From the IMG/VR virus record IMGVR_UViG_2718218305_000006: a DNA stretch of 64,000 nucleotides; one strand, 5' to 3'. Position 1 is the stretch's first letter. Each line of letters begins with the position of its first letter. The position numbers were made by a program. This stretch comes from a virus (taxonomy: Duplodnaviria; Heunggongvirae; Uroviricota; Caudoviricetes). This document shows positions 15,001 through 18,000 of this stretch, piece by piece.

Positions 15001-18000
15001 AGCAAACCTCAGGCCCACTGCTTTGCGCAAAAGCAGAATGAGCCTATCAGAGACAGGCTTAATGATCCATGCTTAATACTGTAAAAATATCCAGTTGTGA
15101 GTTAATCAACGCCGACTGCCTGGAATTTATGCGGTCGTTACCCGAAAATTCTGTTGACCTGATAGTCACGGACCCGCCGTACTTCAAAGTGAAACCCGAG
15201 GGCTGGGATAACCAGTGGGCGGGTGATGAAGATTACCTGAAGTGGCTGGACCAGTGTCTTGCGCAGTTCTGGCGGGTGCTGAAACCTGCCGGAAGTCTTT
15301 ACCTGTTCTGTGGCCATCGTCTGGCATCTGACACCGAAATCATGATGCGTGAGCGGTTTAACGTGCTGAACCATATCATCTGGGCAAAGCCGTCCGGACG
15401 CTGGAACGGGTGCAACAAGGAAAGCCTGCGGGCGTATTTCCCCGCCACAGAGCGCATTCTGTTCGCAGAGCATTATCAGGGGCCGTATCGTCCGAAAGAT
15501 GCCGGGTATGAGGCGAAGGGTAGGACACTGAAACAGCATGTGATGGCCCCGCTGATTGCTTACTTTCGTGATGCGCGCGCTGTCCTGGGGATAACGGCAA
15601 AACAGATTGCAGATGCCACAGGAAAGAAAAACATGGTGTCGCACTGGTTCAGTGCCGGTCAGTGGCAGCTGCCGAACGAAAGCGATTATCTGAAATTACA
15701 GGCACTGTTTGCCCGGGTGGCAGAAGAGAAGCATCAGCGGGGTGAACTGGAAAAGCCCCACCACCAGCTGGTGGATACGTATGCCTCTCTGAACCGACAG
15801 TATGCGGAGCTGCAGAGTGAATATAAGCATCTGCGGCGGTATTTCGGTGTGACGGTGCAGGTGCCGTACACCGATGTGTGGACGTATAAACCGGTGCAGT
15901 ACTATCCAGGGAAACATCCGTGCGAAAAACCGGCAGAAATGTTGCAGCAGATAATCAGCGCAAGCAGTCGTCCGGGAGACCTGGTTGCAGATTTCTTCAT
16001 GGGGTCGGGGTCGACAGTGAAAGCAGCGATGGCGCTGGGACGTCGTGCAACTGGCGTTGAACTGGAGACTGAACGTTTTGAGCAGACGGTGCGGGAAGTA
16101 CAGGATTTAATCATTCGTAACGGATGAGATTGCGGAGTTAATCATGCGTCGTTATTATTCAGCAATCGGCCCTTTAGCTCAGCGGTGAGAGCGAGCGACT
16201 CATAATCGCCAGGTCGCTGGTTCAAATCCAGCAAGGGCCACCAACCGCCACTAGCTCATCAGGAAAGAACGTCACCCTGTGCGAGATTCGGAGTCCCCGG
16301 TGGCGGTCCATTATCGGTATTCTGCGTTGTTAGCTCAGCCGGACAGAGCAATTGCCTTCTAAGCAATCGGTCACTGGTTCGAATCCAGTACAACGCACCA
16401 CACCACACTTATCTGCCCTGACTCTCTTTTGCGGGCTTTTTATTACAGGAAAGACACCGGACAGTGAAATGTTAAATGCCTCACAATTCAGGCAGTTGAC
16501 TGTTGCCTGACATGCTGAGCGTTTGTTAAAAAAATCCTGCATGATGAATCCCCCTGAGCGGCGGGGCATAATGACAGATGTTTGGTTGCGTATTGTATAG
16601 GCAAGTTGCGGATTCTGTCTGGTCATTGCAGAATTCACCGGGAGGCACCCGGCATCATGCTGTATACAGAGATTAGGCATATATCCAGGCTTCTCATCGC
16701 AGGAGCCTTTTTACATGCAAAAAAAAGCCCGAGTGGGTTCGGGCAACAGCATGAGATACTTGCATTGTCATTTTTATCGTGTGGATTTTAACCAGGGTTT
16801 ATAAGGCTGCGCAACTGCGCGGCCTTTTTCGTTTTGCGGGCTGCGGTTCTCCTCTTTTGATTCTCCTTGTGGCCGGACCGTGGCCCGCAACTGTTGAGGA
16901 AAATCCCGGAAAGGGGAGGAATAATGACATTTAAACATTATGATGTTGTCAGGGCGGCGTCGCCGTCAGACCTTGCGGAAAAGCTGACACACAAACTGAA
17001 AGAGGGCTGGCAGCCGTTTGGTAGTCCGGTGGCCATAACCCCTTATACCCTGATGCAGGTGATTACAGCAGAAGGTGATGTGGTGGTCAGTGGTGCAACT
17101 GAGCCGGATTGGTACTACGTCATCGTACTGGCCGGGCAGTCCAATGCCATGGCTTACGGTGAAGGGCTTCCGCTGCCGGATTCATACGATGCTCCGGATC
17201 CGCGCATTAAACAGCTGGCGCGCCGCAGTACAGTGACGCCGGGTGGGGCTGCCTGCAGATATAACGATATTATTCCGGCCGACCACTGCCTGCATGATGT
17301 GCAGGATATGAGTACGCTGAATCATCCGAAGGCAGACCTGAGCAAAGGGCAGTACGGCTGTGTCGGCCAGGGCTTACATATTGCCAAAAAACTGCTTCCG
17401 TATATCCCGAATAACGCGGGGATCCTGCTGGTACCATGCTGTCGTGGTGGTTCGGCATTCACCCAGGGCGCGGAGGGGACATTCAGTGCGGACGCGGGGG
17501 CCAGCCAGGATTCGGCGCGCTGGGGTGTGGGTAAACCGTTATATCAGGACCTGATTGCGCGCACTAAAGCTGCATTACAGAAGAACCCGAAAAATGTGTT
17601 GCTGGCGGTGTGCTGGATGCAGGGAGAGTTTGACATGAGCGCCGCCACCCACGCACAGCAACCTGCGCTGTTTACAGCCATGCTGGCACAGTTTCGTGCT
17701 GACCTCTCCGTGTTTAACGCGCAGTGCCATGGTGGCAGTGCTGCAGATGTGCCGTGGATTTGTGGTGACACGACGTATTACTGGAAAAATACCTACGGCA
17801 CCCAGTACAACACCATTTACGGGGCGTACAAAAACAGGGAGAGTGAGGGCGTTTATTTTGTGCCCTTCATGACAGACGGTAACGGCGTCAATACCGCCAC
17901 TAACGCGCCGGCAGAAGATCCGGATATTCCGGCATCAGGATATTACGGTGCGGCATCGAGAACGAATGGAAACCAGGTATCATCAAACCGCCCGACACAT

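Follow-up and report, generated by a model that had tools for sequence, protein, structure and literature searches.

What does a DNA methyltransferase that stands alone in the late region of a prophage methylate, and when would it act? The question arises from the window, by which we mean the whole stretch of 64,000 nucleotides analyzed here (IMG/VR record IMGVR_UViG_2718218305_000006), which is a lambdoid prophage of Escherichia coli O157:H7. The initial annotation described an orphan enzyme of the late operon that likely protects phage DNA or has an epigenetic role. The features on which the argument depends are the following.

13937..14479, + strand: Q-type late antiterminator gene, 180 aa (Pfam and PHROG matches), just upstream of the late leader
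14566..14602, + strand: strong intrinsic terminator (tR'-like), about 90 nt past the Q stop codon
14721..14918, + strand: 65-aa ORF, probably a small winged-helix (TrmB-like) protein (PHROG 331; sub-threshold Pfam matches)
14905..14930, + strand: second terminator-like hairpin with U6, overlapping the stop codon of the 65-aa ORF
14932..15068, + strand: conserved structured leader of about 140 nt, abutting the methyltransferase start, with no conserved Shine–Dalgarno sequence
15069..16127, + strand: M.EcoGII-family beta-class N6-adenine DNA methyltransferase, 352 aa (PF01555, M.EcoGII identity, PADLOC)
16168..16243, + strand: tRNA with anticodon CAT (Met by ARAGORN; Rfam tRNA, 70.9 bits)
16324..16400, + strand: tRNA-Arg (TCT), co-oriented (ARAGORN; Rfam tRNA, 71.4 bits)

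The methyltransferase coordinates delimit an exact ATG-to-stop ORF (RefSeq WP_000935548.1, "DNA-methyltransferase"), and its description as a DPPY-motif enzyme proved correct. The protein matches Pfam PF01555 (N6_N4_Mtase) over residues 29–340 with 149.1 bits (E = 2.4e-43; gathering cut-off, 26.7 bits), and the PADLOC Type II methyltransferase model with E = 1e-161. The DPPY motif lies at residues 35–38 and FMGSG at residues 310–314, with about 150 inserted residues in between. This is the beta-class order, with the catalytic motif first, the recognition domain in the middle, and the SAM-binding FxGxG motif last. The nearest solved structures are those of the beta-class enzymes M.BceJIV, RsrI, CcrM, and MboIIA, and the AF2 model, whose pLDDT is only 66, matched M.BceJIV, CcrM, and MboIIA in Foldseek with E = 7e-10 to 4e-9. 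The predicted Rossmann-type methyltransferase fold thus appears to resemble solved beta-class enzymes. Helices are modeled at residues 146–173, 177–184, 190–194, 204–223, and 231–255, and the pLDDT of the recognition domain is 59–85. Dam-family phage methyltransferases (M.EcoVT2Dam, T4 Dam, and P1 Dmt) are, like the window enzyme, phage-carried orphan adenine methyltransferases; they are specific for GATC, their motifs run in the reverse order, and in Stx phages they are early-region genes. Membership in this alpha-class, GATC-specific type was rejected on the reversed motif order and the absence of Dam models among the NCBIfam and Pfam matches.

Restriction-endonuclease and defense models matched none of the neighboring ORFs (PADLOC on 8 ORFs, Pfam, and PHROGs), in agreement with the annotated lack of an adjacent endonuclease. 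A Type II restriction–modification system was rejected, the gene being flanked by Q, the 65-aa winged-helix-like ORF, the tRNAs, and nanS-p. The DUF968/HNH protein at 12522–13568 belongs to PHROG 96, a common lambdoid gene that occupies the same place in the prophages of other genera.

Over its full length, the window enzyme is identical to M.EcoGII at 325 of 348 residues (93.4%), a figure that is probably a lower bound and not an exact value because the M.EcoGII sequence was machine-read from the PDF of Suppl. Table S1 of PMC11551740 and some letters were misread (for instance, "NHHIW" and "GRRRAIG" appear in all rows, and "WTKVPQYY" is a further case). About 20 real substitutions separate the two alleles, including 5 in the recognition domain (residues 160–237) and 6 in the charged linker (residues ~238–259). 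The linker is present in the window enzyme, and the sequences of the recognition domain and the charged two-helix linker are conserved despite these changes. The N terminus, MLNTVKISSCELINADCLEF, is common to both proteins, and the window enzyme is 3 residues longer at the C terminus (352 versus 349 aa). In a search of 5.8 billion proteins with the machine-read M.EcoGII as the query, the identity of M.EcoGII to the window enzyme exceeded its identity to any 90%-cluster representative. Among the reconstructed ancestors, Anc291 is 84% and SUPREM is 71% identical to the window enzyme, and S191 and A212, in which the latter differs from M.EcoGII, are the residues of Anc291. M.EcoGII and M.EcoGI of E. 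coli O104:H4 C227-11 share with it the DPPY motif, the recognition domain, and the FxGxG motif, and are likewise prophage-borne with no endonuclease; the window copy lies in an O157:H7 prophage. The methyltransferase gene of phage 1720a-02, which the M.EcoGII paper (PMC5778455) named as the carrier of a very similar enzyme, shows 93.6% nucleotide identity to the window gene, and a "very large family" in E. coli prophages was already described there. Judged by family, motifs, and near-identity of sequence, the window gene is an orthologue of M.EcoGII. The methyltransferase finding is confirmed but already known, and the gene is one more copy of a characterized family.

M.EcoGII methylates adenine whatever the context (Murray et al. 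2018, PMC5778455), and M.EcoGI, which is identical to it at 333 of 349 residues, was also non-specific for adenine in initial in vivo experiments (PMC5778455). All expressed ancestors methylated both DNA and RNA; for M.EcoGII, Anc291, and SUPREM, RNA was the substrate on which the lack of site specificity was examined (PMC11551740). M.EcoGII is silent in lysogens and harmful to the cell when expressed constitutively (PMC5778455; PMC12707154), and M.EcoGI and M.EcoGII left no trace in lysogen methylomes (PMC5778455). The O111 STEC homologues (92–94% similarity) are listed as non-specific, and their lysogens gave only Dam and CTGCAG motifs. By analogy with these orthologues, the window enzyme would be non-specific, silent in the lysogen, and toxic. 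The initial annotation regarded the target specificity as unknown, a view that does not survive a 93.4% identity to an enzyme known to methylate adenine in any context. It also took the absence of an attributable methylation motif as a refutation; this would wrongly discard a true function, because an enzyme that methylates regardless of context leaves no motif behind, and because the gene stays silent as long as the prophage is not induced, so that the methylome of a lysogen would be blank.

The late-operon placement holds by gene order and terminators. The window contains, in order, Q, a terminator, the small ORF, the second terminator, the leader, the methyltransferase, the tRNAs, an empty stx slot, nanS-p, holin, and lysozyme. 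Since it lies downstream of Q and the terminators and ahead of the tRNAs, nanS-p, and the lysis genes, the methyltransferase comes first among the large genes of the late operon. Q matches Pfam DUF1133 (E = 1.1e-110), PF06530 Phage_antitermQ (35.1 bits; cut-off, 26), and PHROG 753 "anti-termination protein Q-like" (E = 3.8e-74); a sequence search of the PDB gave no relative, so the assignment is that of Pfam and PHROG. The first terminator has a 16-bp stem followed by U7 (dG –23.4 kcal/mol, z = –7.3) and marks the end of the Q-specific module. The homology to an Stx2a phage with a different Q begins at ~14630, right past this terminator, and that phage has its own hairpin and U-run at the equivalent place. 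The second hairpin, found in a terminator scan (dG –10.5 kcal/mol, z = –3.8), is identical in the Stx2a phage Stx2_EH2201. A consensus scan found no sigma-70-like promoter between Q and the methyltransferase, and reading by eye was likewise unconvincing; the putative pR' is placed by position only. A 16-bp palindrome, GCTTTAGCGCTAAAGC, lies within 14600–15070 and is present in many homologues. The first tRNA, co-oriented and 40 nt past the methyltransferase stop codon, is annotated as Ile by RefSeq in strain TR01. The stx slot of the window holds STnc100- and AgvB-like sRNA genes and no toxin genes.

The same arrangement recurs elsewhere. One Stx2a phage has the same gene order from Q to lysozyme, with stx. 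In phage 1720a-02 and the Stx2a/2c/2d/2e phages (Stx2_EH2201, phiP27, and others), the methyltransferase genes show 84–94% nucleotide identity to the window gene and share with it the position between Q and the tRNA/stx genes, the 65-aa ORF, and the upstream leader. These phages differ from the window in carrying stx2AB between the tRNAs and nanS-p and a Q of a different family. Prophages of Salmonella, Klebsiella, and Pantoea have Q, the small ORF, the methyltransferase, variable cargo, holin, and lysozyme, with three different Q families.

We propose, with a probability of about 0.85, that this M.EcoGII orthologue is a Q-dependent late gene whose product methylates adenine in phage DNA. In the lysogen, RNA begun at the late promoter would terminate at 14566–14602 and 14905–14930, and the toxic enzyme would therefore not be made. 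Upon induction, Q would render RNA polymerase resistant to the terminators, and transcription would run from the 65-aa ORF through the leader, methyltransferase, and tRNAs into the lysis genes. The enzyme, probably a dimer, would transfer the methyl group from SAM to the N6 of adenine in any sequence context and methylate replicating phage DNA prior to packaging. Progeny DNA would then resist many of those restriction systems of the next host that are blocked by adenine methylation. The folded leader of 140 nt, which lacks a Shine–Dalgarno sequence, is probably a second gate, acting on translation or on the RNA itself. Protection of phage DNA was proposed as the role of the M.EcoGII sequence family (PMC5778455; PMC12707154). 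What we infer here is that the gene depends on Q, when it is expressed, that virion DNA is protected, and what the leader does.

An alternative that we consider improbable is that a defective prophage carries the gene along as an evolutionary passenger, which remains intact yet is never expressed and has no present function in this strain. Many complete E. coli O157:H7 genomes contain this DNA with 100% identity, and 345 genomes match it at ≥99%; an ORF kept intact and identical across hundreds of genomes argues against such a passenger. A homologue was found in 1989 of 5426 genomes, and O157:H7 and other STEC carry up to seven genes of the family per genome. The passenger explanation draws on a 1310-bp IS that interrupts the late region downstream, because of which the prophage may be defective and the gene possibly never acts in the host strain. 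It also draws on the phage records, of which 157 match the gene and only 37 cover at least 80% of it. Most Stx2a phages retain no more than a 50-aa remnant of it (PMC10462455), and the gene is therefore dispensable. The full-length phage homologues sit between Q and the tRNA/stx genes. Against the passenger explanation, the module is carried by isolated, viable phages, among them SfV, mEp460, phiP27, and 1720a-02. From the sequence comparisons, purifying selection on the methyltransferase family, the leader, and the small ORF across genera is clear.

A similarly small chance is given to host DNA or RNA as the main in vivo substrate, with a role in host takeover or anti-defense apart from restriction. 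The toxicity of M.EcoGII and its in vitro activity on RNA and DNA:RNA hybrids would fit such a role, but the initial velocity on RNA is ~90-fold below that on DNA (0.12 versus 11.12, same units; Suppl. Table S3 of PMC11551740).

It is very unlikely that the window enzyme is a sequence-specific orphan with its own motif. The nearest site-specific relative would be M.PflMI (CCANNNNNTGG), which has a predicted Rossmann core and helix-turn-helix recognition domain as here but, according to the description in PMC11551740, lacks the long charged linker; the window enzyme has this linker and would be set apart from M.PflMI by it. The 5 recognition-domain and 6 linker substitutions relative to M.EcoGII could be read in favor of a distinct motif, as could the name "site-specific DNA-methyltransferase" that many homologues carry at NCBI. 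The name is a generic family label, however, and some of the differences (S191 and A212) match Anc291. M.EcoGI, 16 residues away from M.EcoGII, is likewise non-specific, and the overall identity of the window enzyme to M.EcoGII is itself an argument against this explanation.

The weakest candidate is the epigenetic role in the lysogen, a Dam- or CcrM-like orphan altering host or prophage expression in normal growth: gene regulation is frequent among orphan methyltransferases and a GATC is conserved 3–4 nt ahead of the start codon, but two terminators and a folded leader without a Shine–Dalgarno sequence precede the gene, lysogen methylomes carry no trace of M.EcoGI, M.EcoGII, or the O111 homologues, M.EcoGII is harmful when constitutively expressed (PMC5778455), and the enzyme is of the beta class and not Dam-like.

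The leader that would form the second gate of the proposed late gene is 138–142 nt long in nearly all distinct sequences (~25 genera), and in an nhmmer search it abuts the methyltransferase ATG in 64 of 88 sequences, loci without the 65-aa ORF included. Nucleotide identity to the window is 73–82% for the leader versus 69–76% for the coding sequence, so that, across Enterobacterales genera, conservation is higher in the leader than in the coding sequence. RNA of the window at 14890–15090 folds at –79.2 kcal/mol (z = –4.3), and the leader forms three hairpins with compensatory changes together with highly conserved unpaired stretches. Compensatory changes occur at 14 of 29 pairs (5.5 ± 1.4 in shuffles and 4–7 in slid controls), and 93.9% of the alignment cells are paired. 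Covariation alone leaves the strand unfixed because G-U and C-A mismatches both occur, and the structure was read on the + strand by assumption, this being the transcribed strand. The alternative long-range helices ATGGGC:GCUCAU, GGUCA:UGAUC, AGC:GCU, and GGCCCAC:GUGAGCC are almost invariant and therefore get no covariation support; GGUCA:UGAUC is the start-codon pairing. Two further elements were rejected. A leader peptide "MGGWWV" (ATG GGC GGC TGG TGG GTG TAA, 14941–14961) is broken or out of frame in sequences from Salmonella, Rosenbergiella, and Buttiauxella that keep the hairpin, and a hairpin ATCAG:CTGAT beside the start codon is poorly kept (34 and 37 of 53 cells paired at two positions). 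Rfam 15 contains no family matching the leader, the sole match being P26 on the opposite strand (24 bits, E = 0.039; gathering score, 36).

The 65-aa ORF lies ~115–200 nt upstream of the methyltransferase in 62 of the 85 loci with enough upstream DNA (~73%), and its product is 80–97% identical in the Salmonella, Klebsiella, and Pantoea prophages. It belongs to PHROG 331 (function unknown; E = 1.9e-37) and carries the NCBI name "TrmB family transcriptional regulator"; its Pfam matches, to TrmB, DprA_WH, and MarR_2, are all sub-threshold. Three helices are seen in its AF2 model (pLDDT 66), to which Foldseek gave no match with E < 5. The ORF was not detected in ~22 of the 85 loci, ~20 of which keep the leader; in loci with the leader alone, Q or variable cargo stands before the terminator and leader. 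A literature search found no relevant description of the small ORF or the leader, and the two together may be a new side result. Our tentative reading, which we hold at somewhat less than even odds, is that the leader is an undescribed cis-regulatory RNA gating the production of a non-specific methyltransferase that is toxic and consumes SAM. The start region might be masked by it; alternatively, the RNA might respond to a ligand (SAM or SAH, for example) or bind a protein, for which the 65-aa TrmB-like protein is one candidate.

The arrangement is reminiscent of com-mom of phage Mu, in which a toxic adenine-modifying late gene, silent in lysogens, is preceded by a small ORF and an mRNA structure close to the start codon. 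Com is a zinc-finger RNA-binding protein, and Mom is not a methyltransferase. The 65-aa protein, in contrast to Com, has a winged-helix look and contains only two Cys. Activation of the com-mom type was rejected: the small protein has only those two Cys and sub-threshold winged-helix matches, and it was not detected at every locus. An obligatory Com-like activator is not supported, because the leader is retained in ~20 loci that lack the small ORF. Mom and M.EcoGII are paired in a review (PMC12707154).

EcoGII is an enzyme sold as a reagent, and E. coli prophages commonly carry members of its family. These methyltransferase genes will be overlooked when the methylomes of lysogens are surveyed, and motif-based assignment can credit them with nothing. 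If the enzymes fire on induction, Stx and related phages would release progeny whose DNA is heavily methylated at adenine, which would bear on how freely toxin phages pass restriction barriers and on how sensitive they are to type IV enzymes that depend on m6A. The leader and its partner ORF, if their proposed roles are true, would explain how a cell-damaging enzyme stays off. In the Stx2c/2d/2e phages and some Stx2a phages, Shiga toxin is expressed further along the same transcript as the leader element, which would be a testable regulatory RNA in the stx-bearing late transcript.

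The methyltransferase (MTase) gene is an ORF of 352 codons that runs from ATG to stop exactly over 15069–16127 on the + strand. Its product matches the Pfam profile PF01555 (N6_N4_Mtase) at residues 29–340 (149 bits, E = 2.4e-43) and contains DPPY at residues 35–38 and FMGSG at residues 310–314, confirming the methyltransferase noticed in the initial annotation. About 150 additional residues separate the two motifs, and this insert, together with the position of the catalytic motif ahead of the SAM motif, indicates a beta-class layout. Among solved structures, its sequence is closest to those of the beta-class adenine enzymes M.BceJIV, M.RsrI, CcrM, and M.MboIIA. 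A fold search with its AlphaFold model, whose confidence is moderate (pLDDT 66), returned the same enzymes (E about 1e-9). The protein has the RefSeq entry WP_000935548.1 ("DNA-methyltransferase"). Its DNA is 100% identical in many complete E. coli O157:H7 genomes and is matched at 99% or more in 345 genomes; a homologue is present in 1989 of 5426 complete E. coli genomes, at up to seven places per genome.

The target specificity, initially described as unknown, can be predicted from a characterized orthologue. M.EcoGII methylates adenine whatever the surrounding sequence; its gene lies on an E. coli O104:H4 prophage, is silent in the lysogen, and is deleterious if expressed (PMC5778455). Compared with its sequence, taken from Supplementary Table S1 of PMC11551740 (read by machine from a PDF, with some reading errors), the MTase is identical at 325 of the 348 positions aligned (93.4%), and the true identity is probably slightly higher because several mismatches are such errors. 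About 20 substitutions are real, including five in the recognition domain and six in the charged linker. At the nucleotide level, the gene shares 93.6% identity with its counterpart in phage 1720a-02, which was named as the carrier of an enzyme very similar to M.EcoGII (PMC5778455). M.EcoGI, identical to M.EcoGII at 333 of 349 positions, was likewise found to be non-specific for adenine (PMC5778455). Identity to the reconstructed ancestral enzymes Anc291 and SUPREM is 84% and 71%, respectively; both methylate DNA and RNA, and the non-site-specificity of these two and of M.EcoGII was examined on RNA (PMC11551740). Homologues from O111 STEC (92–94% similarity) are listed as non-specific, and the lysogens gave only Dam and CTGCAG motifs. 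Judged by its near-identity to the orthologue, the MTase should methylate adenine in any context; it is not Dam-like. It belongs to the M.EcoGII family by every testable feature, namely its motifs, its profile match, its identity over the full length, its location in a prophage, and the missing endonuclease; the family-defining activity, and the silence in lysogens, are predicted for it.

The surroundings of the gene are those of a lambdoid prophage:

12522–13568, DUF968/HNH gene
13581–13940, RusA gene
13937–14479, Q-type antiterminator gene (DUF1133, plus PF06530 above threshold)
14721–14918, + strand, 65-aa ORF between Q and the MTase gene
16168–16243, tRNA(CAT)
16324–16400, tRNA-Arg(TCT)
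16867–18777, + strand, NanS-p-type sialate esterase gene, 636 aa (domains DUF1737, SASA, and DUF6645)
3' of the esterase gene, holin and lysozyme genes

None of eight neighboring ORFs matched a PADLOC model, and Pfam and PHROGs suggested no endonuclease partner. The MTase is therefore an orphan, as first proposed, and not part of a restriction–modification system. Its assignment to a late operon is likewise upheld by the gene order and the terminators after Q; a consensus scan between Q and the MTase gene did not locate a late promoter. A textbook intrinsic terminator lies at 14566–14602, ~90 nt past the Q stop codon (16-bp stem plus U7, dG −23.4, z = −7.3), and the 65-aa ORF ends within a second hairpin, which is followed by U6. 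When the Stx2a phage Stx2_EH2201, whose Q is unrelated, was aligned to the window, similarity started only at ~14630, just past the first terminator, and this phage has its own hairpin and U-run at the matching position. Q, its promoter region, and the first terminator therefore move together as a single module, and the shared late segment begins with the small ORF and the MTase gene. Prophages of Salmonella, Klebsiella, and Pantoea show the order DUF968, Q, small ORF, MTase, variable cargo, holin, and lysozyme, with Q from three different families.

Stx2_EH2201 has the same gene order as the window, but its stx2AB sits between the tRNAs and nanS-p; the window is a toxin-less version of the Stx2a-phage late region. 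At the empty toxin slot (16400–16867, compared with 7351–9546 in a Stx2a phage), stx2A and stx2B are absent and only two of the three tRNAs are present within the shared order Q, small ORF, MTase, tRNAs, nanS-p, and holin. The place of stx2AB is taken by Rfam matches to the sRNA STnc100 (16510–16718, + strand, 175 bits) and the anti-GcvB sRNA AgvB (16720–16779, − strand, 56.6 bits, just above the gathering score of 56), the latter overlapped by a weaker AsxR match. The MTase gene matched 157 phage records, with at least 80% of the gene covered in only 37, and the small ORF plus leader is present in only 58. In Stx2a phages, two of three sequence clusters are reported to be 50-aa remnants of the MTase gene, and in those phages a deletion moved the late promoter nearer to stx2 (PMC10462455).

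The 65-aa ORF belongs to PHROG 331 and is named "TrmB family transcriptional regulator" at NCBI; its winged-helix matches in Pfam are all sub-threshold, and its AF2 model consists of three helices at low confidence. The protein is 80–97% identical across Escherichia, Salmonella, Klebsiella, and Pantoea, and the MTases of the latter three prophages are 76–78% identical to that of the window. With one genome per species, it lies upstream of the MTase gene at 62 of 85 loci (~73%).

The non-coding leader (14932–15068, + strand, about 140 nt) is defined as the segment from 8 nt 5' of a conserved ATGGGCG up to the MTase ATG. Its length is 138–142 nt in almost every one of the distinct sequences, which represent about 25 genera. 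Of 88 sequences searched with its profile, 64 carry it directly adjoining the MTase start; among them are ~20 loci that have no small ORF and in which the leader follows a terminator, itself preceded by Q or unrelated cargo. At the same loci, nucleotide identity to the window is 73–82% for the leader versus 69–76% for the MTase coding sequence. Structure was tested on a 53-sequence alignment with four named helices: P0 (UGGGC:GCCCA), P1 (a 12-bp hairpin), P2 (a 6-bp hairpin), and HC (a hairpin formed by the palindrome GCUUUAGCGCUAAAGC).

Table. Pairing in the leader alignment (named structure; 500 shuffles; slid controls)
Cells forming a standard pair: 93.9%; 89.2%; 30–43%
Pairs (of 29) changed on both sides: 14; 5.5 ± 1.4; 4–7
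Cells changed on both sides: 60; 14 ± 2.8; 6–12

None of the 500 shuffles attained the observed value on any of the three measures, and compensatory changes back three hairpins. For example, P1 pair 19–46 occurs as UA (46), GC (4), CG (2), and AU (1), and P2 pair 53–77 as CG (29), AU (9), UA (8), and UG (6), with none unpaired. The RNA fold of 14890–15090 (−79.2 kcal/mol, z = −4.3) places the start codon within a long-range helix. No conserved Shine–Dalgarno sequence precedes the ATG, and no Rfam family matches the leader. The GGUCA:UGAUC helix beside the start codon is almost invariant, so that covariation cannot prove it. A GATC (Dam site) lies at 15064–15067, 1 nt before the ATG; ATC is invariant in 53 of 53 leaders and G is kept in >90%. 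It may be the 3' strand of this helix or, alternatively, a DNA-level signal.

From the conserved structure, we read the leader as a putative cis-acting RNA that limits or times the output of a toxic enzyme. The locus resembles Mu mom in that a small ORF and an RNA structure precede a toxic late adenine-modifying gene, but it lacks the features that define com-mom control, and an obligatory Com-like activator was rejected because the leader is kept at loci without the small ORF. A leader peptide was also rejected: the mini-ORF ATG GGC GGC TGG TGG GTG TAA (MGGWWV; 14941–14961, + strand), within the 5' arm of P1, is not conserved, being truncated or out of frame in several genera.

Elsewhere in the late region, a 1310-bp insertion relative to strain TR01 (20626–21935, 3-bp overlap at the junction) encodes a 296-aa IS3-family transposase (rve, HTH_21) and lies inside an antirepressor-like gene, between the lysozyme gene and an Rz-like lysis gene. 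Both the size of the insertion and its target duplication are consistent with IS629. The esterase gene is intact (636 aa), whereas the TR01 prophage, otherwise 98–100% identical, carries two annotated pseudogene fragments. Another lambdoid early region starts at about 50300 (about 50300–64000), arranged in tandem with the first prophage, and includes an exonuclease homologue at 51933–54377. Parts of it share 80–92% identity with the early region found in the TR01 prophage; the latter is in turn 98% identical to the first prophage of the window.

Here, we propose how the MTase may work. In Stx phages, lysogen transcripts from pR' are described as stopping at terminators (PMC7547250). In the lysogen, pR' transcripts would similarly stop at the terminators upstream of the MTase gene, which would fit the reported silence of M.EcoGII. 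Upon induction, Q-modified polymerase would pass the terminators, and the MTase would be produced during phage DNA replication and methylate adenines ahead of packaging. In the next host, the progeny DNA should therefore be resistant to restriction that is sensitive to adenine methylation. Protection from restriction is the role proposed for the M.EcoGII family (PMC5778455, PMC12707154), and the MTase probably protects phage DNA in this way. The absence of an attributable methylation motif, originally suggested as a refutation, would mislead, because a non-specific enzyme leaves no motif and the lysogen methylome would be the same with or without the gene. As a finding, the MTase is already known. 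A literature search found no prior description of the module of 65-aa ORF and leader around it; only the conserved leader and this small partner ORF look new, and they merit modest follow-up.
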